From Escherichia phage vB_EcoM_G4507: DNA of 64,000 nt. The stretch lies in sequence record NC_054919.1, one strand, 5' to 3'. This document shows, piece by piece, positions 15,835 through 31,440 of this stretch; position 1 is the first letter of the stretch; the number at the start of each line of letters is the position of its first letter. A model generated the notes under the pieces. The model saw nothing but the letters and a program-made list of their open reading frames with translations, was not told the DNA's origin and did not search any database. The translations under genes were made by a program, and so were the position numbers.

Positions 15835-16125
15835 TTATTTACGGAATGAAATGAAAGCAGCAACTGAAGCAACTAAACTGTCTTCAATATAAACTTCAAT
15901 TTTTACCGGAGCTTCTGACTCAAATTTACCTGTTACTACACCCTGAAAAATACTTTCAGTCTGTTCTGGCTTTGAAAAATTTTCAGAAGGAAAAATTCCG
16001 AACTTTTTATCTGTTCCAAAAATTTTGATAAATTCATCGTAAACTGCTTCATTAAAAGCATTATCAGCAGGAATAACGCCTTCAACTACAAGTTCTTGAC
16101 CTAAAAAGCGCAAAGAAGATTTCAT
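15835..16125 (-). CDS. Hypothetical protein (alt.-3 position)
   Basis: 96-aa ORF preceded by an early promoter and GAGGA Shine-Dalgarno. Confidence 0.6.
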   Translation of the reverse strand: MKSSLRFLGQELVVEGVIPADNAFNEAVYDEFIKIFGTDKKFGIFPSENFSKPEQTESIFQGVVTGKFESEAPVKIEVYIEDSLVASVAAFISFRK

Positions 16126-16132
16126 TTTGTGT

Positions 16133-16186
16133 TCCTCATGTTATGTCAGTAAGACTACTATAACACAACACGAGGGACTTGTAAAC
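16133..16186 (-). promoter_or_regulatory. T4-type early promoter plus leader: GTTTAC(-35), 18 nt, TATAGT(-10); copy 1 of a 54-nt repeat
   Basis: Minus strand reads GTTTACAAGTCCCTCGTGTTGTGTTATAGTAGTCTTACTGACATAACATGAGGA then ATG; identical bar 1 nt to 31387-31440. Confidence 0.6.
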
Positions 16187-18243
16187 TACATCTTGAACTT
16201 TTTAGACATTCCGTTGATGTTAACCAAAGAAGCTAAGATTTGAGAAACTTCGTTTTCCTCTTCTTTTGATTCTTCTACAAGGAATTGATTAAATCCAGCC
16301 ATTGGACGAACTTCACCAGTTTCCATTAGATGGTCGCCATCATATACTGATTCTTCTAATTGTTCAGAAGGAGGAACGATTGTACCTTCGATTAGATACT
16401 TGTTATAAGCAGTTTCTTTCATAAAGTAAGTACTTACTTTATTAATCTTCAGTAAAATTCCACGTGGTAGAATAACTTCAGCTTCTGACGGAAATCCTGA
16501 TAAATGACCCGGAACGATAACTTTGATTCGCTCAGCTCCTTTAATTACCATACCCACGCTAGTTTCAGCATCTTCATTAGCATATGTAGAATGACTACCC
16601 ATATGCATCAAATCTTCTGCATCAACGGAACCTTCTCCTTCACCAGAAAATACTGCGCCGGAATCATCTAGAGCCATATAGTTTTTACCATGCTCACCGA
16701 AGATATTTGGTTTAAGCGATGTGGATACGAAGTTCTTGAAATAGAACATTTTATTTTCAATGTTATGACGCAAAGTTTTAAAGGTAACTTCTTGTCCACG
16801 GTAAAGTGTAGTTCCTGGAGGAAGAACTGAACCTTTAGCGAATGCAGAATCAAGCGTCTCAATATGTTTAATAGCTCGTTCCATATATTCTTCACGGGTA
16901 GAATCTGGTTTACCCAAAAGGAACGAGTTCATTTCAACATATGAATCTGCACAATAATCTTCAATTACATCAGATTCAGCTTGAGTTAATCCTTTTGGAG
17001 TTACTTCAGTGCTTGCGTATTCATATGCCTGAGCAGCAGATTCATTAATCAATTTATAAATGCCATTCATGACAAATTGAATAATAGCTGTCTTTTCATC
17101 TGGCGTAGCTTTAGAACCTTTAACCAAATCATTGATAATTTTCTTAATAACATCAAAGCTATTAGAAATATTAATATCAGCAAGATCGCTTAAAATTTTA
17201 TCAGTCTTATAATCAAAGAATTCTTTATTCTTTAAATATTCTTGAGAACCTTGATATGTTATATCGCTCTGTAACTTGATAGATGGATCACGTAAACGTG
17301 CATGGGCTAATGCAATATGATTTCGGAAGCTTTCGAGTTCATAATCACTAGATTTAAAACGAGAAGCGCTTCTCATACCGCCTATAGCTCCTTTGCTGAA
17401 GTTTGAACCAATTTGAATAACGCCAGAGTTCATTGGTCCTTCTGCTTTATACACCGGAACTTTAGATTCAAACTCTTGATATTTCTTAGCAGCGAAGCTA
17501 TCACCCTGAAGTGAAGCATCAACAGTAGAATATTGAGCTTGTGCTGCTAATCGACGACTAATTTTAGTTTTCTGAATAACAGCTTGGTCCGTGCGCTTAT
17601 CATTTTCTAAAGCAATAGAAGCAGCAACAGCAACAGCTTTAGGAACAGCATTACCTGTTTTAACATCTACATAAACATCACCAACCTTTGATTCAACTTT
17701 TGTGAATAACTCAGTTGAAATAGGAGGTACACCTGGAATGTCTTCTAAATTGGCATTTTTACGATAAACCATAATATATGCGTACTTTTTATCATAATCC
17801 CAGATTTCCTTTAAAAGAACATATCGACCTGCTCCTTTAGTACGTACTAAACGGTCAGCAATAACTTGCATTTGACGAGCAGCGCCATTTGTTTTACTCT
17901 TTAGTACGCGGAATAAGCATGCATCAATTTTATACTGTTTCATTGTTTGAAGAGCAGTATCAAAAACAGCGTTAATGACGCCAATTGGATTTCCACCCAA
18001 GTTTCTAAGTTTAACCAGTGATAATTTCTCGTTGACACCTATCATTACGATATGCATCATTTTATCGCCCGGCTTAACGTTTTTATTTGTATCACCTCCA
18101 GAGGTGTATGTACAAAATCTAAATCCAGGAAGCACGCTTTCTTCGCCGGCTTGAATAGCAAAAATTTGAGGTATTTTATGCTTAGGATTTAAGTTAACAA
18201 CCGGCGCCGAAGCGCCGTCAAATAATTCTGTAATAAGTTCCAT
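16186..18243 (-). CDS. Alt-family mono-ADP-ribosyltransferase paralog (685 aa)
   Basis: Shares N-terminus MELITELFD, LCTYTSGGDTN, YKIDAC, QVIADRL, YVLLKE.WDYDKKYAYI with the adjacent Alt; C-terminal R-S-E motifs LYRGQ, FVSTSL, EAEVILPRG. Confidence 0.75.
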   Translation of the reverse strand: MELITELFDGASAPVVNLNPKHKIPQIFAIQAGEESVLPGFRFCTYTSGGDTNKNVKPGDKMMHIVMIGVNEKLSLVKLRNLGGNPIGVINAVFDTALQTMKQYKIDACLFRVLKSKTNGAARQMQVIADRLVRTKGAGRYVLLKEIWDYDKKYAYIMVYRKNANLEDIPGVPPISTELFTKVESKVGDVYVDVKTGNAVPKAVAVAASIALENDKRTDQAVIQKTKISRRLAAQAQYSTVDASLQGDSFAAKKYQEFESKVPVYKAEGPMNSGVIQIGSNFSKGAIGGMRSASRFKSSDYELESFRNHIALAHARLRDPSIKLQSDITYQGSQEYLKNKEFFDYKTDKILSDLADINISNSFDVIKKIINDLVKGSKATPDEKTAIIQFVMNGIYKLINESAAQAYEYASTEVTPKGLTQAESDVIEDYCADSYVEMNSFLLGKPDSTREEYMERAIKHIETLDSAFAKGSVLPPGTTLYRGQEVTFKTLRHNIENKMFYFKNFVSTSLKPNIFGEHGKNYMALDDSGAVFSGEGEGSVDAEDLMHMGSHSTYANEDAETSVGMVIKGAERIKVIVPGHLSGFPSEAEVILPRGILLKINKVSTYFMKETAYNKYLIEGTIVPPSEQLEESVYDGDHLMETGEVRPMAGFNQFLVEESKEEENEVSQILASLVNINGMSKKFKM

Positions 18244-18246
18244 GAT

Positions 18247-20298
18247 TTATCCTTGAACGAACTTGTAAGGCATGTTTGTAATATCTATGCAAGACGCAAT
18301 AATTCCAAGAGATGATTCTACTTTCTGTTTAACATTTGATGAAACAAATGATGCAAAGTCAACTCTATCTTCTATATCACCTGTCATTGTAACTACTTCG
18401 CCGGTTTCCATTAAACGGTCACCGTCATAAATTACTGATTCGGTGAGTTCTTCGGTGGTCATAACTTCAGCTTGAATAAGCTTGTTGTTAGTTTTGACTG
18501 TTCCATCATTGTAAGATGCATCAGTTATTTTATTAACTTTGACCATTAATCCACGTGGCAAAATGACTTCCATTTCATTTGAAGGCGCTAAACTTCCACC
18601 GGGTAAAACAACATTGACTTTATCAGCCCCAGTAATAACCCATCCAATTCCGACTAAATTATCGCTAGAATTAACAAGCCCTTCATCATTTTTATCGATA
18701 GAAATGTTTAGACGCTTTTCATCTGGTAAAACACCAACAGCTGAATCAGTCATCCAAGTACCAAAAATGTTTGGATATAATGATGTTGATACAAAATTTC
18801 TAAAATAAAAAACTCGATTTTTTACCATTGCTTCGTATATTGAAGGTAACATTCGTTGTGAACGATACAAAGTAATACCTTTTGGTAATCGTTCACCATT
18901 TTTAAAGGCTGAATCTAAATTATCAATAGCTTTTTCTATGTCAGATGCTGTCAAAATACTTGTACGCTCATCTGGATTATATAATCCCAAAAGAGCATTA
19001 TTTATGTCTACATATCCTGAACCTACGTATTCACGAATTCCGCGTTTTTGTGCTGGTGTGTATTTAGATGAATCTTTATTTTCGACTATAGGATGTAATG
19101 ACCATCCAGCTGTAAGAGCATATCCACGTAATTCTCTTCGAATAATCTTTGTTTTTATTGCATTCCAAGAATTTTGTACTAACTCATTTGCAGCATCTTG
19201 GTTTAAATGCGAATGTTTGTTAATATTTCTTTCAAACCAAGCACCTTTATATTTTTCTAAAGTATTATCGACGATAGAAGCAATAGTTTCTAAAGTTTTT
19301 ATTGAAGTAATAGATTCTTTTCGTAATTTTTCTAAAGCTTTATTTTTTATTTCTGCATTAATAATGGATTCTTTATCTTCAGGAATTATAGAAGCTTCTC
19401 TGAATGCCATCCCAGCTGTAACACTGCTAAGAGCATTCTCTAGTGCAAATCCTGAAGTAGAAATTACCGTTAATTCATTAGAATCAGAAATTAAAGGCGC
19501 ATCAGCGGGTTTATTTAATTCTGCTGCTGAAGCCTCAAATTTTTGAAACATCGGTGTTTCAAATCTAGAAGATTCCAATGACTGACTTTGTGCAATTGCT
19601 CTACGGGAAATTTTAACTTTAACGATTACAGCTTGGTCAGAACGTTTATCATTTTCTTGTGCAATAGATGCTGCAATTGCCTCATTTTTGGTTACTTGAG
19701 CTCCGGTATCTTTATTGATATAAACATCACCGACCTTCGATTCAACTTTAGTAAAGAGCTCGGTACTAATTTCCGGAACTCCTGGAATGTCTTCTAGTGA
19801 TACATTTTTGCGATGTATAAGAATATATGCATACTTTTTATCATAATCCCAGAGTTCCTTAAGAAGGACGTATCTGCCACCTGAACGACTACGGATAAGT
19901 CTATCAGCAATAACTTGAATTTGTCGAGCTTGACCAGCGGTTTTAGACTTAAGAATACGAAGCATACAGGCATCAATTTTATACTGACGCATTGTTTGCA
20001 TCGCAACAGTAAAAACTGAATTGATATAATTAATTGGGCTTGGACCAAGACCTTTTAATTTAGCAATTGAACCTTTAGCAGTTAATGTAAAAGGAACAAT
20101 ATGCATCATTTTATCGCCCATCTTTAAATCGCGATTAGTATCACCTCCAGATGTATAGGTACATAAACGAAAGCCTGGTTGTTCAATTGCATCATCAACA
20201 TGAACTGAAAAAATTTGCGGTATTTTCTTCTTTGGATTTAAGTTTGTAATCGGAAGAGTAGTATCTTCGTCAAATAATTCTGTAATAAGTTCCATCAT
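18247..20298 (-). CDS. alt: Alt, RNA polymerase ADP-ribosyltransferase (packaged and injected)
   Basis: 683 aa (T4 Alt 682 aa); R-S-ExE motifs LYRSQ, FVSTSL, EMEVILPRG; immediately upstream of DNA ligase as in T4. Confidence 0.85.
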   Translation of the reverse strand: MMELITELFDEDTTLPITNLNPKKKIPQIFSVHVDDAIEQPGFRLCTYTSGGDTNRDLKMGDKMMHIVPFTLTAKGSIAKLKGLGPSPINYINSVFTVAMQTMRQYKIDACMLRILKSKTAGQARQIQVIADRLIRSRSGGRYVLLKELWDYDKKYAYILIHRKNVSLEDIPGVPEISTELFTKVESKVGDVYINKDTGAQVTKNEAIAASIAQENDKRSDQAVIVKVKISRRAIAQSQSLESSRFETPMFQKFEASAAELNKPADAPLISDSNELTVISTSGFALENALSSVTAGMAFREASIIPEDKESIINAEIKNKALEKLRKESITSIKTLETIASIVDNTLEKYKGAWFERNINKHSHLNQDAANELVQNSWNAIKTKIIRRELRGYALTAGWSLHPIVENKDSSKYTPAQKRGIREYVGSGYVDINNALLGLYNPDERTSILTASDIEKAIDNLDSAFKNGERLPKGITLYRSQRMLPSIYEAMVKNRVFYFRNFVSTSLYPNIFGTWMTDSAVGVLPDEKRLNISIDKNDEGLVNSSDNLVGIGWVITGADKVNVVLPGGSLAPSNEMEVILPRGLMVKVNKITDASYNDGTVKTNNKLIQAEVMTTEELTESVIYDGDRLMETGEVVTMTGDIEDRVDFASFVSSNVKQKVESSLGIIASCIDITNMPYKFVQG

Positions 20299-22262: not shown

Positions 22263-23101
22263 TAGAATGCTCCTTGGAAAATATTATTAGCACCAGTAGG
22301 TCTATTATACAAATACTCTATGCCACCGGGTTTAATATAGTTCCATGTCTGAAACGGATGCGTCTGATATGGATGATATAGATGATTATAAGGATTAAAT
22401 CCAGGAGTTCTCCAGGTAGTGTTCCAAGGAAAAGAATCGTTTTTAATCATCTTTTCAATTACATCTTTTATAGCTTTTTCACTATCAAAACTTTCTTTAT
22501 TTTCCTTCGGTGAAAAAAGCTTATTTTCTACATCATTCCATGTATAAACTCGCTGAGCAGTTTTTGGAATATTGTCACGCTCTCCTCGAGCCATCCAATA
22601 AACAGGAACATTTAATATTTCACTCGCATGATCGCAATGGTGAGCGAGATCGTCAATATAACAAATCACGTTATATTTCTCTTTTGCCTTTTTAAACAAC
22701 TCTTCTTTTGAAGAATCATGACCACACATCAGTACTTCTGAGAAGGCACCAGGAAAAAGAGCGTTCAAATTAAATTGACGATTCAGCAGAGCGTCAATAG
22801 AATCACCCAATGCTGTAACAGCTACAAAATTATAATCTTCTTTTAATTTGTTAATTACACACAGAGCATCTTTATATGGAGACAAGTAACGAATAAAATC
22901 TGAACGATTGTATTTTTCAATTAGCTTGACGCCAAGTTCTTCATCACAATTAAAAAGTTTACCTGGAGAAATAAATTTCTCATCTTGGATCATTTTTAAA
23001 ATATGTTCTAATGGAAGATTATATTTCTGAGCAAAATAAGGAAGACCTGATTGCCAGCTTAAACATACTCCATCAATATCAGTTAAAATAGTAGGCTTCA
23101 T
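22262..23101 (-). CDS. HAD-superfamily hydrolase-like protein (30.2 position)
   Basis: 279 aa; N-terminal ILTDIDGV is HAD motif I (DxDGx); later CYIDD fits motif IV. Confidence 0.65.
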   Translation of the reverse strand: MKPTILTDIDGVCLSWQSGLPYFAQKYNLPLEHILKMIQDEKFISPGKLFNCDEELGVKLIEKYNRSDFIRYLSPYKDALCVINKLKEDYNFVAVTALGDSIDALLNRQFNLNALFPGAFSEVLMCGHDSSKEELFKKAKEKYNVICYIDDLAHHCDHASEILNVPVYWMARGERDNIPKTAQRVYTWNDVENKLFSPKENKESFDSEKAIKDVIEKMIKNDSFPWNTTWRTPGFNPYNHLYHPYQTHPFQTWNYIKPGGIEYLYNRPTGANNIFQGAF

Positions 23102-23562
23102 AGAGAGTCTCTTAATAGGTTTAACACATCAATAAATTCAGCTTCGGTTAGTATTGTATCATCTTTTGTTAGACCACTAGCCATGCTGTGCTTCAAAACT
23201 TTTCCTTTCGAGGCTTGTAATGCATCACGAAAGCCCTTGTTTTGAATCGCTGCTTCAAAATATGCATTTGTGTATAATTCTTTCCACGCCGGGGAGTATC
23301 TTGAAAACGGAACTCCAATCCAGAAGAGGGTCCCACGGTCCTGAGCTCTAGCATAAGACCTTCCAGCTTGTTGGGCGGCAAGCCCGGATAACCCAAATAT
23401 ACGACGTTGTTGTTCAACATTTTTCACCTTACACCCTTGGAGGAATCCTTCAAGACCTCCAAATTGAATACCATCCATAACGAAAGGCCATTGGGCGAAA
23501 TTACTTAATGCGCATGATGGCCATCTAAAATTACTTCTAATCTCTAACTCAGACATTTTCAA
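23098..23562 (-). CDS. NADAR/YbiA-like (DUF1768) protein, putative ADP-ribose or N-glycoside hydrolase (30.3 position)
   Basis: 154 aa; WPSCALSNFAQWPFVMDGIQFGGLEGFLQGCK parallels E. coli YbiA GDFSNFAAWPIKVDGKTWPTSEHYFQAQK (recalled from memory). Confidence 0.55.
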   Translation of the reverse strand: MKMSELEIRSNFRWPSCALSNFAQWPFVMDGIQFGGLEGFLQGCKVKNVEQQRRIFGLSGLAAQQAGRSYARAQDRGTLFWIGVPFSRYSPAWKELYTNAYFEAAIQNKGFRDALQASKGKVLKHSMASGLTKDDTILTEAEFIDVLNLLRDSL

Positions 23563-23755
23563 TGCTTATAATTTCAACATCAGCCCAATGACCATAGCAA
23601 GGAAGACGAAATTCAACTGGCCAGTTAGGGTCCTTTTCTAATATAATAGACTTAACTTGTGGTTCTTCGTGTTCATCAGTATACGGATTTTTATCTGTTA
23701 CTTTATATGTGACCTTAATGTACTGAATTCCAAAAATCTTATTAATTATATTCAT
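23549..23755 (-). CDS. Hypothetical protein
   Basis: 68-aa ORF in a translationally coupled chain. Confidence 0.5.
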   Translation of the reverse strand: MNIINKIFGIQYIKVTYKVTDKNPYTDEHEEPQVKSIILEKDPNWPVEFRLPCYGHWADVEIISIENV

Positions 23756-23949
23756 ACTAATTCCTTTAATCCGTAGATAGGAGATAATTCATCACCCATA
23801 CGAAGGTCTTCATTTCCATCTACCCAGGAAACAATATAAGCCTCTTTTATTTGAATACCACTCCATTTAAATGGAGGTAGAACCTTAGAAATTAATCCAG
23901 GTATACCAACTCCCTTTAATTCAACGGTTTGACCTAAAAAGAATTTCAT
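23752..23949 (-). CDS. Hypothetical protein
   Basis: 65-aa ORF, coupled. Confidence 0.5.
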   Translation of the reverse strand: MKFFLGQTVELKGVGIPGLISKVLPPFKWSGIQIKEAYIVSWVDGNEDLRMGDELSPIYGLKELV

Positions 23950-24236
23950 TAAAACCTCATCTGAAAACCATGCGATTTAACGTTACCACCGCCAATATCA
24001 GAAATATTAATTTCACGCGCAATTGAAGGGTCAATGTCAATTTCACGATTGAGTTTAGTGATAGCTAAAGTATCGCGCCCATTTACAGTACGGAACTCTA
24101 AAGGACAAACCACATCAACGTAGTTTTTAATCGATTCGCTAGTAGGTTGCAAATGTGCAGGAAGGTCTTTAGGCGACTTTGAGAAAACTACTTCGCAGAA
24201 GTTTTTACGGGTATCAAAATAAGTAGTCATAAACAT
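23949..24236 (-). CDS. Hypothetical protein
   Basis: 95-aa ORF, coupled; terminator hairpin upstream. Confidence 0.5.
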   Translation of the reverse strand: MFMTTYFDTRKNFCEVVFSKSPKDLPAHLQPTSESIKNYVDVVCPLEFRTVNGRDTLAITKLNREIDIDPSIAREINISDIGGGNVKSHGFQMRF

Positions 24237-24253
24237 AACATTTTCCTCAGTAA

Positions 24254-24267
24254 GGGGCCAAAGCCCC
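24254..24267. terminator. Hairpin ggggcc-aa-agcccc
   Basis: GC inverted repeat in the intergenic region. Confidence 0.45.
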
Positions 24268-24277
24268 TCATTTTATT

Positions 24278-24655
24278 TTAAATATCAAATTCGTTAAGAA
24301 CTACATCAAAGATTGCTTCAAGATGCTCAGGTTTAGCTCTGTTACTCAGAATATGACGAATCCAAGTTTTAACCAAAAGCTTGCGATTAGCACCATTCCA
24401 GCAAGGATGAGTCCCTAAATCACGTTGACGAAAATCATCATCCAGAGCGATTTTGAAGTTTGAACCTTCCATTGTGATTGAAACCGTGATGCCATTTTCA
24501 AATCGCATATAAACGTAATTAGGAGTCATATACTGTTCAATTTCGCATACTGATCCATTTTGATGTTTCCAAAGGCAAATAGTATCAATAGAACCTGCAA
24601 TACAATTAGAAACATATTTACGTTCAAAATTGGTGTAGTTCATTTTATTCTCCAA
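24278..24655 (-). CDS. Hypothetical protein
   Basis: 125-aa ORF with its own early promoter. Confidence 0.55.
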   Translation of the reverse strand: MENKMNYTNFERKYVSNCIAGSIDTICLWKHQNGSVCEIEQYMTPNYVYMRFENGITVSITMEGSNFKIALDDDFRQRDLGTHPCWNGANRKLLVKTWIRHILSNRAKPEHLEAIFDVVLNEFDI

Positions 24656-24671
24656 GATGTTTAATTGCGGT

Positions 24672-24708
24672 ACAGGTATATAATATCATATCCTGTACCA
24701 AAGTAAAC
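24672..24708 (-). promoter_or_regulatory. Early promoter (GTTTAC -35, TA-rich -10) overlapping a ggtacagg/cctgtacc hairpin
   Basis: Minus strand GTTTAC followed at about 18 nt by TATTAT/TATATA; coordinates approximate. Confidence 0.45.
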
Positions 24709-24710
24709 AA

Positions 24711-25043
24711 TTATTTTACTACTTTCCAATGCTGCATGTCAAGTTTACCAACTTTTTTCATCTTCTCAATTAAGCGTTCTGCACGTTGGCGAGCTGTAAC
24801 ATAATGCCATTCGCCTAATTCATTTTGTTCAATTTTTCCAACGATTACTGTATTCAATTCATAAATCCAACCAGTAAAGAAATTATGAACTTGAATTGTA
24901 AAGGTGAAATCTGTTCCCATACCTTCTGTTGTTTCTACTTCAATAATATCACCTTCAACTGCCATTAAGAACCACATAGTTTCATCATATTTACCATTGA
25001 AGCATTTAGTTTTAACTGTAGCGTTCAGATTAATCGTTTTCAT
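24711..25043 (-). CDS. Hypothetical protein
   Basis: 110-aa ORF with upstream early promoter and AAGGAG Shine-Dalgarno. Confidence 0.55.
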   Translation of the reverse strand: MKTINLNATVKTKCFNGKYDETMWFLMAVEGDIIEVETTEGMGTDFTFTIQVHNFFTGWIYELNTVIVGKIEQNELGEWHYVTARQRAERLIEKMKKVGKLDMQHWKVVK

Positions 25044-25059
25044 TTTATTCTCCTTTGTT

Positions 25060-25099
25060 TATGTAAGATAATACTATCACAAAGGAACTATACTGTAAA
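25060..25099 (-). promoter_or_regulatory. Early promoter GTTTAC, 18 nt, TAGTAT
   Basis: Minus strand GTTTACAGTATAGTTCCTTTGTGATAGTAT; coordinates approximate. Confidence 0.45.
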
Positions 25100-25128
25100 C
25101 AACTTTATGCAATCTTTGGAAAATAAAA

Positions 25129-25148
25129 AAGGACTCCCGAAGGAGTCC
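25129..25148. terminator. Hairpin aggactcc-cgaa-ggagtcct
   Basis: 8-bp stem, tetraloop, A-run upstream. Confidence 0.55.
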
Positions 25149-25153
25149 TCAAC

Positions 25154-25330
25154 TTATGCTTTCTGCTTACCAAAACGAGAAGCATCATCTCGAAGAACCG
25201 CACGTGCTCGGCGCATGATCTTCTCAACAGTTTGATTGATACGAGAGTTCGACCCACGCTTGTAGCCAGCGCGTTTAGAATCACCAACTTTCTTTTCAAC
25301 TGCTTTCTTTGCTTTAACTTGTTTTGCCAT
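25154..25330 (-). CDS. Small highly basic protein (30.9 position), possible nucleic-acid binder
   Basis: 58 aa from the internal ATG with upstream AAGAG; MAKQVKAKKAVEKKVGDSKRAGYKRGSNSR is Lys/Arg-rich. Confidence 0.5.
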   Translation of the reverse strand: MAKQVKAKKAVEKKVGDSKRAGYKRGSNSRINQTVEKIMRRARAVLRDDASRFGKQKA

Positions 25331-25574
25331 TATAAATTCTCTTTTAAATGAAAATGCAGGACTTATTGGCATTGCCTGCGAAAGCCCTCAAAGGGGTACT
25401 TAGGTTTTGAATATTTACCGACAGGATAACCATAAACCCGTCATCATTCACATTCAAGAGGTACACCATAAAACTGCCGGGGTCTTAAAACTATAATGAT
25501 TCGCAAATCATTAATCAGACAGTTCGATGGCTCCTCGATTTTAGCTCACACTAAGGCAGTGAATCTCCAATAAA

Positions 25575-25823
25575 TTACTTCAGTGTTACCACAAAGTGAC
25601 GAACTGCTTTTCGTGCAGCAGAAGCCAGAGGCTTAGCATACTTAAGTTCATCTTTTTCCTGAAGCTCAGCGGCTAATGCAGTTTGAGCAGGATTTAGATG
25701 TTTGAAATAACGCAGGATTTCAAGAGCTTCGGCTTCAACATCAATAGATGCGCCATAGTTTTCGTGACCATTATTCCATGCGTTTCGTTGCAGTTCAAGA
25801 GCGTGTTGTAATTGTTTAATCAT
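25575..25823 (-). CDS. rIII: rIII lysis-inhibition accessory protein
   Basis: 82 aa, same length as T4 RIII; lies immediately before gene 31 as in T4. Confidence 0.85.
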   Translation of the reverse strand: MIKQLQHALELQRNAWNNGHENYGASIDVEAEALEILRYFKHLNPAQTALAAELQEKDELKYAKPLASAARKAVRHFVVTLK

Positions 25824-25962
25824 TTAAAAATTCTCGTTAGAGATTAAAACTCGGTAGTCACGTTCTTCTGAATTTCATCTTCTTTCGACAGATCTCTCAG
25901 TTGTAGACTACCACATAGAATTGTTCGGTTAACTTATTATTCCGACACCCAATTCATATTAT

Positions 25963-30535: not shown

Positions 30536-30885
30536 TTAGAAAGGTCCTGGATGTCTTCTGCTAACTTGTTGAAGGAGTTGTTAATTTGTTTTTCAACCAA
30601 TCCTGGCTTATGAGCCACCACATCCGCCTTCTTTGCGTCTTTGCGCAGTTTTTCATTTTCACGCTCAATAGCAGCAATTGCCTCACGATTTTTATTATTC
30701 ATCGCATCAATATAATTATACTGAATTCGCAAATTATTTAATGCTAAAGCGTTTTCATTGGCTGTTTTTGTAATTTCGGTAACTGATGTTTCTAATCTTT
30801 CTACCTTATTTTTTAAAATAATAGATGTTCCGCCAAATGCTATTACAAGTAATAGCAATCCAGCTGTAAAATTACTTACATGCAT
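30532..30885 (-). CDS. i-spanin (Rz equivalent): N-terminal transmembrane helix plus coiled-coil periplasmic domain
   Basis: 117 aa; TM segment AGLLLLVIAFGGTSIIL then heptad-rich helical region. Confidence 0.7.
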   Translation of the reverse strand: MHVSNFTAGLLLLVIAFGGTSIILKNKVERLETSVTEITKTANENALALNNLRIQYNYIDAMNNKNREAIAAIERENEKLRKDAKKADVVAHKPGLVEKQINNSFNKLAEDIQDLSK

Positions 30886-31382
30886 AAAGTTTTAATAACC
30901 TCTATAATATCGTCTTGAGAAAGACCGTTAATTAAAATATGATGTTCAGCTGGAGATTTAGAAATTTTAAAGCATGCCTCAACATCTTCTGCCATATCCG
31001 ATGCACTACGATTTGGATTACTAATCCCAAGGCGATGTTTTCCCGTCAAAGGATTAACGATGATATAGCATTTGCAGCTATTGATATGAACATTGGGTTG
31101 AGTCTGATTAATGAACACTTCACAATCATACTTAGCGAGTTGATTTTCTAAAAAGACTTTCATCTCTTCAACCGCATCAGGAAGCATATCACGGGCTTGC
31201 TCAAGACGACGATTTCGATATTCTTTAATGGTCGTTTTCCGCTTGACTTGTTTAGCTAAATCTTTCTTAAGATCAGTGATATATCCAACTCGACGATTTC
31301 CTTTAAATACAGAAATCCCATCTGTAGTATCACCGTATGCTTCAACGACCATTTCAGTAGTAATACGCTGCAAATCCATCAT
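30876..31382 (-). CDS. alc: Alc, host transcription terminator for cytosine-containing DNA
   Basis: 168 aa (T4 Alc 167 aa); directly upstream of rnlA as in T4; preceded by early promoter. Confidence 0.75.
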   Translation of the reverse strand: MMDLQRITTEMVVEAYGDTTDGISVFKGNRRVGYITDLKKDLAKQVKRKTTIKEYRNRRLEQARDMLPDAVEEMKVFLENQLAKYDCEVFINQTQPNVHINSCKCYIIVNPLTGKHRLGISNPNRSASDMAEDVEACFKISKSPAEHHILINGLSQDDIIEVIKTLCM

Positions 31383-31386
31383 AAAG

Positions 31387-31440
31387 TCCTCATGTTATGC
31401 CAGTAAGACTACTATAACACAACACGAGGGACTTGTAAAC
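31387..31440 (-). promoter_or_regulatory. Early promoter plus leader, copy 2 of the 54-nt repeat (GTTTAC, 18 nt, TATAGT)
   Basis: Identical to 16133-16186 except one substitution. Confidence 0.6.

Follow-up and report, generated by a model that had tools for sequence, protein, structure and literature searches.

By sequence comparison, the six small ORFs located between the 30.3 orthologue (23098-23562) and rIII in Escherichia phage vB_EcoM_G4507 are orthologues of the T4 genes 30.4, 30.5, 30.6, 30.7, 30.8 and 30.9, kept in the same order and all encoded on the minus strand. We interpret the locus as the 30.9-30.4 cluster of early genes, here in a close relative of T4, the products of which would work as stoichiometric binders of host factors, and assign to this explanation as a whole a probability of about 0.6. 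The cluster is already known: its members are long-named T4 genes, and vB_EcoM_G4507 adds near-identical copies only. The identity of the genes, their early transcription signals, their conservation and the published properties of the 30.5 protein carry this interpretation, and three alternative explanations are considered together with the evidence that bears on them.

Gene order and expression signals of the cluster

The window analysed in this work is a stretch of 64,000 nt (NC_054919.1) from a Tequatrovirus that is ~98% identical to T4. DNA identity is 100% to MK327937 (vB_EcoM_G10400) and 97.8% to T4 over 3 kb, and the six proteins match their T4T counterparts with 98-100% amino acid identity over 100% of their length. 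Comparison of the ORF list with the T4T annotation reveals the gene order of T4, namely ligase, 30.1, 30.2, 30.3, 30.4 ... 30.9, rIII and 31, with the T4 gene names taken from HM137666. All six ORFs are found where a preliminary description of this DNA had placed them, between the 30.3-like gene and rIII (25575-25823), which lies upstream of the cluster. In the order of reading on the minus strand they comprise 30.9 (25154-25330; 58 aa, 98% identity to T4 30.9), 30.8 (24711-25043; 110 aa, Pfam PF06019), 30.7 (24278-24643; 121 aa, Pfam PF06919), 30.6 (23949-24236; 95 aa, phrog_2153), 30.5 (23752-23949; 65 aa) and 30.4 (23549-23755; 68 aa, acidic, phrog_2042). The initially reported range of protein lengths, 58-125 aa, is correct at its lower end; the value of 125 aa for 30.7 had been counted from an upstream TTG, and the start of this gene is an ATG preceded by GGAG, which gives the 121 aa annotated in T4 and G10400.

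The T4-type early promoter motif (GTTTAC, 17-18 nt, TAnnnT) has 12 matches in the window, all of them on the minus strand, compared with 4.1 matches expected by chance on both strands, and none of 100 shuffles reaches 12. The pattern search identifies an early promoter of 30.8 (25071-25100, minus strand; GTTTAC-N18-TAGTAT with a TGn extension) and an early promoter of 30.7 (24680-24708, minus strand; GTTTAC-N17-TATTAT), at both of which the host sigma-70 polymerase could start transcription. The same search of the window finds no T4-type early promoter before 30.9, 30.6, 30.5 and 30.4, so that the earlier statement about several genes having their own early promoters is borne out for 30.8 and 30.7 but not for the other four. 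A sigma-70-like candidate before 30.9 (TTGAAT-17-TATGGT) was rejected, since only 8 of its 12 positions match and relatives do not keep it.

A terminator scan detects an intrinsic terminator after 30.9 (25120-25150, minus strand), GAGGACTCC-TTCG-GGAGTCCTT then TTTTTATTTT. It consists of a 9-bp GC-rich hairpin and a U-run, is annotated as a terminator in MK327937 as well, and would part the upstream 31-rIII-30.9 unit from the genes from 30.8 onward. This is the one canonical case among the hairpin terminators that had been proposed for the region. The GC-rich hairpin between 30.7 and 30.6 (24250-24269, minus strand) is not a canonical terminator, because the coding strand lacks a U-run there, the T-run being located on the opposite strand, and an 8-bp hairpin (24669-24699, minus strand) overlaps the 30.7 promoter. 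In the downstream part of the cluster, stop and start codons overlap at 30.6/30.5 (TAATG), at 30.5/30.4 (ATGA) and at 30.4/30.3, where the end of 30.4 and the beginning of 30.3 have 8 nt in common, with no promoter between these genes; 30.6-30.3 are thus probably carried on one mRNA with coupled translation.

A RegB-type GGAG is found inside the Shine-Dalgarno sequences of 30.8 (AAGGAG) and 30.7 (TTGGAG). In T4, cleavage by RegB in the Shine-Dalgarno sequence of the 30.7 mRNA has been demonstrated, and this mRNA serves as a standard substrate in RegB work (PMC9409239). The characterization of the products as small early proteins agrees with T4 omics data, which put all six genes in the early class: 30.4-30.8 are classed as early at both the RNA and the protein level, and 30.9 is classed as early with 'NA' in one of its two expression-class columns (PMC9697503 supplements).

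Gene 30.9 and the structured RNA modules next to rIII

Within the cluster, 30.9 stands out as encoding a highly conserved, rIII-linked basic micro-protein. With a pI of 11.4 and 19 Lys and Arg among its 58 residues, this protein is indeed the highly basic one that had been singled out from the ORF list. Its homologues form 66 clusters, exclusively from T4-like phages, and an alignment of 28 of them contains 16 invariant residues. The invariant core of the protein reads SKRAGYKR.SN.RI.Q...K...RARAVLR....FGK. The gene has been annotated at 97 aa (old record), 72 aa (T4T record) and 58 aa (G10400), and the T4 annotation of CRISPRi-ART uses the 58-aa form (PMC11879866). The start of the 58-aa form is supported by the alignment, since 28 of 28 homologues begin with MAKQ, MSK or MAKK; most of them are 46-60 aa long. 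A purine-rich, Shine-Dalgarno-like AAAGAGA is present upstream of the ATG.

According to one alternative explanation, some of the ORFs, and 30.9 above all, are non-coding, and their conservation reflects RNA or DNA signals. Such an explanation could account for the location of 30.9 beside structured RNA modules, for the moves of its annotated start, for its 'NA' entry among the expression classes, and for its unusually low dS versus Klebsiella phages, which is 0.39 as compared to >1.5 for rIII, cd, 30.7 and 30.8. We consider it highly improbable, given that the frame, start and length of 30.9 and its invariant residues are kept in 28 homologues, that its dN/dS is 0.08-0.43, that AAAGAGA precedes its ATG, and that the five other genes are early at both levels in T4. 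The missing expression class may be explained by the 19 K+R in 58 aa, which leave few usable tryptic peptides. The low dS equally fits recombinational exchange, as the 30.9 gene resembles its Jiaodavirus counterpart more than the Dhakavirus one.

The gap between rIII and 30.9 measures 146-398 nt in all 15 loci, from several genera, for which the spacer was extracted. In vB_EcoM_G4507 this non-coding spacer, which is the leader of 30.9 (25331-25574, minus strand), contains a series of conserved RNA modules on the same strand: a hairpin (25546-25562), an 84-nt multi-helix element (25453-25536), a further block (25403-25447), a second hairpin (25382-25399), and a stem (25356-25379) located just ahead of the 30.9 Shine-Dalgarno sequence. 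Across 12 variants of the 84-nt element, 99.1% of the cells are paired and 5 pairs show compensatory change, and 0 of 500 shuffles are as good. The rIII leader also bears a conserved structured RNA module with compensatory base changes, and a 135-nt element is found in the spacer of relatives. A leader cassette of ~60 nt is found at two places: T4-like, Dhaka and Gapriver phages have it ahead of rIII, and in Klebsiella and Serratia phages it stands ahead of 30.9. Rfam has no match for the window region or for six related loci; the best Rfam candidate, Atu_C8 over the 30.9 terminator, was discarded at 31 bits versus a gathering score of 50.

In all fetched loci with examined gene order, 30.9 comes directly after rIII, and the parts further downstream vary. 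This synteny leads to a second alternative, in which the cluster is linked functionally to its conserved neighbours and not to a general takeover of the host, and in which 30.9 and RIII would cooperate either in lysis inhibition or in controlling early mRNA decay through RIII, S1 and RegB. The placement of the same leader module ahead of either rIII or 30.9, depending on the genus, is consistent with such a partnership, as are the ability of RIII to bind ribosomal protein S1 and damp RegB (PMC9409239) and the basic nature of 30.9, a frequent feature of RNA-binding proteins. We nevertheless consider this explanation improbable, because synteny and charge make up the whole of its evidence and because the knock-downs of rIII and 30.9 are both 'Not Fit', which leaves the two genes with no known phenotype in common.

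Of the six genes, 30.9 is the most persistent. For its protein taken by itself, the charge and the synteny with rIII suggest, as the likeliest role, binding to nucleic acids or association with ribosomes. A similarity of the 30.9 profile to E. coli SlmA over 25 residues (RINQ..E.I....R.VLR....R.G; E 0.3-0.9) was not significant and was set aside. We tentatively put forward, as a rather doubtful possibility, that the exchangeable spacer modules are regulatory or small RNAs and that the 30.9 protein joins the RIII-S1-RegB circuit as a partner binding RNA or ribosomes; if true, T4-like phages would possess here a module for post-transcriptional control that had not been described before. The covarying RNA modules may be a more original lead than the six genes, as they suggest RNA-level regulation or mobile leader cassettes.

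Conservation, protein families and possible host-directed roles

The six ORFs are real genes. Each of them is found in 719-1040 phage records, and their dN/dS values versus other genera (0.06-0.5) indicate purifying selection. Almost all enterobacterial T4-like phages carry 30.7, 30.8 and 30.9 (~1000 records each), and most Tequatroviruses keep all six genes, so the locus is less plastic than implied by its designation as a plastic region. Between genera the cluster does vary, with a patchy distribution of 30.4 and 30.6 and with extra ORFs inserted in Klebsiella, Edwardsiella and Pectobacterium phages. Among the compared loci, 30.4 is present only in Tequatrovirus, Mosigvirus and Dhakavirus, and 30.6 is missing from Mosigvirus LF82-16. 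In the natural fusion protein P0068, the N-terminus of 30.7 is joined to the C-terminus of 30.3, pointing to loss of 30.6-30.4 by deletion.

In T4, CRISPRi-ART knock-down of 30.4, 30.5, 30.7, 30.8 and 30.9 scores 'Not Fit', i.e. without fitness cost, and the rIII knock-down is likewise 'Not Fit'; 30.6, at 0.72 (p 0.067), is borderline 'Semi-Fit', and gene 31 reaches 4.1 and the class 'Fit' (PMC11879866 supplement). Genes 30.7 and 30.9 are highly conserved and yet show no knock-down cost, a combination not usual in genes of a purely accessory kind, which suggests a role that is visible only on natural hosts. Searched under several naming schemes, 30.4, 30.6, 30.8 and 30.9 appear in the literature in annotation tables only, and the main text of two genome-wide phage-mutagenesis preprints does not mention 30.4-30.9.

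Each of the six proteins matches a PHROG family with an E-value between 1e-33 and 7e-66. The 30.7 protein matches the full-length model of PF06919 (Phage_T4_Gp30_7; 178.7 bits vs a cutoff of 27), and the 30.8 protein that of PF06019 (Phage_30_8; 197.9 bits vs a cutoff of 25); both families are defined solely by these phage proteins and have no function attached. The absence of a recognizable enzymatic motif, pointed out in the preliminary description, was confirmed for all six proteins by searches against Pfam, where the matches are self-named families only, and against PHROGs, NCBIfam, PADLOC and PDB sequences. The PDB sequence searches gave chance-level matches only (E 0.17-0.7), and none of the six proteins matched a family among the PADLOC defence models. 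Structure prediction yielded a confident model for 30.8, beta-rich with one long helix, and a confident model for 30.7, with a seven-strand meander sheet and three helices. No fold relatives of these two models were found in the PDB and BFVD structure libraries, which makes 30.7 and 30.8 good targets for interaction screens.

Several other similarities were rejected as uninformative. The long repeat proteins P0108 and P0109, matched by 30.8 at E 2e-6 to 5e-6, have no informative Pfam domain in the matched part. The start of 30.5 resembles the ORF at 15835-16125 over 34 nt at 71% identity, too short a stretch for calling a paralogue. The idea that the neighbouring 30.3 protein is of the NADAR/YbiA type found no support, with Phage_30_3 as its only Pfam match and nothing in favour from the PDB sequence search.

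The best evidence for a host-directed role concerns 30.5. The T4 30.5 protein co-purifies with E. coli polyphosphate kinase (Ppk), a partnership seen in pull-downs after over-expression and described in a single preprint (bioRxiv 10.1101/2024.12.17.629029). The same study reports that T4 30.5 activates the NLR-related defence protein bNACHT11, with the SNaCT domain of the latter as the part that binds 30.5, and that T4 lacking 30.5 is viable, the loss of 30.5 helping the phage to evade bNACHT11. As the vB_EcoM_G4507 protein is 100% identical to T4 30.5 over 65 aa, these published properties should transfer to it. By activating bNACHT11, 30.5 is a trigger of defence and not an anti-defence inhibitor; the one loss phenotype published so far, evasion of bNACHT11, is opposite to the sensitization that loss of an anti-defence gene would cause. 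The original designation of the six products as candidate host-takeover or anti-defence proteins was a reasonable prior and is partly supported: a host-directed role has direct support for one gene only, 30.5 through Ppk, and neither our analysis nor the literature searched yielded evidence of an anti-defence function for any of the six.

Under a third alternative, one or more of the six proteins would serve specifically in anti-defence, as inhibitors of a bacterial immune system. In its favour, the products are small, early and free of enzyme motifs, five of the knock-downs carry no cost in a laboratory host poor in defence systems, the patchy 30.4 and 30.6 and the inserted ORFs make the cluster variable between genera, and the neighbouring 30.5 is seen by an immune sensor. 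However, the proteins have no sequence likeness to known anti-defence families in Pfam, NCBIfam, PHROGs and PDB sequence searches, and the 30.7 and 30.8 models have no structural match. Moreover, 30.5 triggers defence rather than inhibiting it, no literature link of 30.4 or 30.6-30.9 to any defence system was found, and 30.7 and 30.9 are conserved far beyond typical anti-defence cargo. We regard a dedicated anti-defence role as rather unlikely.

The preferred explanation, binding of host factors by the products of the early cluster, can be outlined as follows. The six proteins are small, presumably soluble and free of catalytic motifs. Most likely they would work stoichiometrically: within the first few minutes after infection, each would attach to a single host protein or nucleic acid and in this way adjust host physiology. 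The early presence of 30.5 would be what made it a cue sensed by bNACHT11. For the five other proteins, the suggested host-factor binding extrapolates what is known of 30.5 and of further early proteins of T4. The discovery value of the locus is small, since the T4 genes, promoters and early timing were known before; its practical value lies in triage, with Ppk now available as the host partner of 30.5 and bNACHT11 as the immune sensor that responds to it.

Comparison with T4 early systems

The closest known counterpart is the T4 cluster 30.4-30.9 itself (HM137666 / NC_000866; UniProt Q02405-Q02408, Q00305, P17310). It shares with the cluster of vB_EcoM_G4507 the gene order, the strand and the positions of promoters and terminator, and the differences in the latter phage are point substitutions only. 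The T4 early transcription unit upstream of the ligase gene 30, with its early promoters and RegB processing, was reportedly described by Truncaite et al. in 2006 (Virology 344:378, cited in PMC9409239). The region analysed here shares with that unit two GTTTAC-type early promoters and a GGAG in each of the two Shine-Dalgarno sequences, those of 30.8 and 30.7; we detected no difference, and the 5' ends reportedly mapped for the T4 unit would agree with this.

A likely mode of action may be illustrated by two other small non-essential early proteins of T4, 55.2, which is an inhibitor of topoisomerase I (PMC4396842), and MotB, which acts on DNA/H-NS (PMC6070864). Neither has sequence or fold likeness to the six proteins, and the comparison is one of working mode and not of membership. 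What 55.2 and MotB share with the products of the 30.9-30.4 cluster is that they are small, early, dispensable in the laboratory and without an enzyme motif.

Identity and expression of the six genes

A 3-kb query around the cluster matched 958 phage records, including Escherichia phage vB_EcoM_G10400 (MK327937) at 100% and T4 at 97.8% over the full length. Overlay of the annotated T4 record (HM137666) identifies the six minus-strand ORFs, which lie where the preliminary description placed them (23549-25330), as T4 genes 30.4 (23549-23755), 30.5 (23752-23949), 30.6 (23949-24236), 30.7 (24278-24643), 30.8 (24711-25043) and 30.9 (25154-25330), with products 98-100% identical to those of T4. rIII and gene 31 border the cluster at one end and 30.3, in which the 30.3' frame is embedded, at the other. 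Of the size range initially given, 58 aa is correct (30.9), but 125 aa is not: it assumes an upstream TTG for 30.7, whereas initiation at the ATG that follows a GGAG Shine-Dalgarno motif yields the annotated 121 aa. The neighboring 30.3 gene (23098-23562), which contains the out-of-frame ORF 30.3' (23193-23420), has Phage_30_3 as its sole Pfam match; a suspected relationship to NADAR/YbiA-like proteins was confirmed neither by Pfam nor by a PDB sequence search.

All six are real genes. Each protein matches a PHROG family (E 1e-33 to 7e-66), and tblastn recovers 719 (30.4), 851 (30.5), 791 (30.6), 993 (30.7), 1040 (30.8) and 997 (30.9) records from phages of Escherichia, Shigella, Klebsiella, Enterobacter, Yersinia, Salmonella, Serratia and Aeromonas. 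Compared pairwise with six to eight other genera, the genes give dN/dS values of 0.06-0.5. In time-resolved T4 omics data, 30.4-30.8 are early at both the RNA and protein levels, and 30.9 is early in one column and 'NA' in the second (PMC9697503 supplements). In the genome-wide dCas13d knock-down of T4, 30.4, 30.5, 30.7, 30.8 and 30.9 are classed 'Not Fit' and 30.6 'Semi-Fit' (0.72, p 0.067), the neighboring gene 31 scoring 4.1 (PMC11879866 supplement).

Conservation of the cluster and of gene 30.9

Comparison with loci from seven other genera revealed uneven conservation. For 30.7, Mosigvirus and Dhakavirus show 91-93% identity, against ~50% for the Klebsiella, Aeromonas, Edwardsiella and Yersinia phages; the values for 30.8 and 30.5 span 37-79% and 36-70%, respectively. 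Among these loci 30.4 occurs only in Tequatrovirus, Mosigvirus and Dhakavirus, 30.6 is missing from the Mosigvirus LF82-16 locus, and unrelated ORFs of 150-200 aa are inserted in the cluster of other genera. This makes the cluster a conserved accessory block showing some turnover, neither strict core nor hyperplastic hotspot, and less plastic than initially implied. Natural variants have lost parts of it: a 154-aa protein from an ENA contig (P0068) begins with the first 78 residues of 30.7 and continues into the C-terminal portion of 30.3, implying deletion of 30.6, 30.5 and 30.4, and phage vB_EcoM_G2285 (P0089, hit H80) has truncated 30.7 and 30.5.

The highly basic protein singled out earlier is indeed 30.9 (58 aa, pI 11.4, 19 K+R), and all 66 of its homologue clusters come from T4-like phages. 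The 28 aligned sequences begin with MAKQ, MSK or MAKK and share 16 invariant residues within the core SKRAGYKR.SN.RI.Q...K...RARAVLR....FGK. Annotated lengths are 72 aa in HM137666, 97 aa in the old T4 record and 53-59 aa in other genera. This alignment, together with a 1-nt deletion in Mosigvirus LF82-16 by which the upstream ATG of the 72-aa version falls out of frame, shows that the supposed extension (25331-25372) is non-coding leader with a GCAGGC...CCTGC stem and that the product has 58 aa.

Relative to Jiaodavirus, 30.9 is 84-86% identical, compared with 70-76% for rIII, 64-69% for gp31 and 69-80% for cd, and its dS is 0.39 versus >1.5 for the neighbors. Against Dhakavirus, although otherwise closer, it has 65% identity and a dS of 1.4. 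Against the Klebsiella and Serratia phage loci L003, L007 and L011, dS is ~0.4-0.5 (84-86% amino acid identity in the Klebsiella phages), and all neighboring genes show the reverse ranking, with Dhakavirus closer. Exceptional protein constraint alone is thus a less likely source of this pattern than recombinational (mosaic) exchange of the small gene, to which extra constraint on its RNA may contribute. Gene 30.9 directly follows rIII in every fetched locus with gene order examined; this synteny and the charge are the only grounds for suggesting a nucleic-acid-linked or ribosome-linked role. A resemblance of residues 30-54 (25169-25243) to residues 122-146 of SlmA, the E. coli nucleoid-occlusion factor, amounts to 11 identities over 25 residues and is not significant (E 0.3-0.9).

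Transcription signals and RNA modules

The early promoter motif GTTTAC-N16-19-TANNNT is real and enriched: the window has 12 copies, every one of them on the minus strand, versus 4.1 expected on both strands. Several of the six genes had been credited with their own promoters, but just two copies lie inside the cluster, before 30.8 (25071-25100, 18-nt spacer) and 30.7 (24680-24708, 17-nt spacer), both with a TGn extension. Elsewhere in the window, a 54-nt early promoter and leader is repeated 15 kb apart with 98% identity, upstream of a 96-aa ORF (15835-16125) that follows an Alt-like gene (copy at 16133-16186) and of a 168-aa ORF at 30876-31382 (copy at 31387-31440), and looks like a duplicated regulatory cassette. 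Two tandem ORFs, 16186-18243 (685 aa) and 18247-20298 (683 aa), resemble each other at their 5' ends, first over 31 nt (97%) and then over 158 nt (73%); the former looks like the ADP-ribosyltransferase Alt of T4.

As to the hairpin terminators described, a single canonical one follows 30.9 (25120-25150, minus strand), a 9-bp GC-rich hairpin with a U-run, and the GenBank record annotates it too. Of two other minus-strand hairpins, one downstream of 30.7 (24250-24269) carries its T-run on the opposite strand; the other, of 8 bp (24669-24699), partly coincides with the promoter of 30.7. Stop and start codons overlap at 30.6/30.5 (TAATG), 30.5/30.4 (ATGA) and 30.4/30.3 (8 nt) with no promoters between these genes, which suggests coupled translation of 30.6-30.3 from one mRNA. 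In T4, the endoribonuclease RegB cuts GGAG in the 30.7 Shine-Dalgarno sequence, and 30.7 mRNA is a standard early RegB substrate (PMC9409239, citing Truncaite et al. 2006); in the window, 30.7 and 30.8 each have GGAG in their Shine-Dalgarno sequence. In the explanation favored here, two early promoters together with read-through drive transcription of the cluster, and RegB shuts it off.

The rIII-30.9 spacer (25331-25574, 244 nt) is non-coding in every relative where it was extracted (146-398 nt), and its modules vary in presence between phages. Just downstream of rIII lies a four-helix 84-nt element (25453-25536, minus strand), in which 99.1% of cells pair across 12 natural sequence variants, with compensatory changes at 5 pairs of a 13-bp helix; none of 500 shuffles and no slid register came near this pairing. 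Within it, an AU-rich hairpin and the UAGUUUUAAG that follows might act as a leaky rIII terminator. A ~60-nt leader (25853-25912, minus strand) with a closing stem, an inner stem and a GAAA-capped hairpin precedes rIII in the window and in the Dhaka and Gapriver phages, and its homologue in Klebsiella and Serratia phages (L003 3374-3431; L007; L011) lies ahead of 30.9 instead. Compensatory changes affect 8 of its 18 pairs, 95% of cells pair versus 26-44% in slid controls, and in each case the Shine-Dalgarno sequence sits in a small hairpin that comes next. The leader has the look of a cassette that can be exchanged.

A third, highly conserved 135-nt non-coding element, absent from the window and T4, occupies this spacer in Klebsiella, Aeromonas, Edwardsiella, Serratia, Dhakavirus and some Tequatrovirus phages such as U115 (L003 3208-3342, L005 3254-3388, L007 3276-3410, L008 3214-3345, L009 2293-2427, L011 2250-2385 and L013 537-671, in the coordinates of each locus); 10 of its 40 pairs predicted by RNAalifold have compensatory changes. 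None of the three modules matched Rfam, and a literature search returned no small RNA from the rIII-30.9 region. As the samples are small and related, we regard these modules as leads rather than proofs.

Candidate functions of the six proteins

The proposed lack of recognisable enzymatic motifs is borne out: Pfam returns just the self-named families PF06919 (30.7) and PF06019 (30.8), and NCBIfam, PADLOC and PDB sequence searches gave no meaningful match. Structure models were built for the two largest proteins, and searching 1.84 billion representatives exhaustively with HMMER recovered only 21 clusters for 30.8, essentially all of ~110-aa phage proteins. An AlphaFold-multimer screen singled out T4 30.5, which co-purifies reciprocally, when tagged, with E. 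coli polyphosphate kinase (Ppk), and activates the NLR-related defence protein bNACHT11, which T4 escapes once 30.5 and two other activators are deleted (bioRxiv 10.1101/2024.12.17.629029). The reading of the cluster as host-takeover or anti-defence genes is partly supported: a host interaction is documented for one gene, 30.5, and anti-defence activity for none of the six, 30.5 being a defence trigger. Most likely, the small non-catalytic products each bind an individual host component, as exemplified by 30.5 and Ppk.

With these corrections the original observation is confirmed. The RNA modules of the rIII-30.9 region and the conserved micro-protein 30.9 provide modest but genuine leads, and the cluster itself is the early cluster already known from T4.
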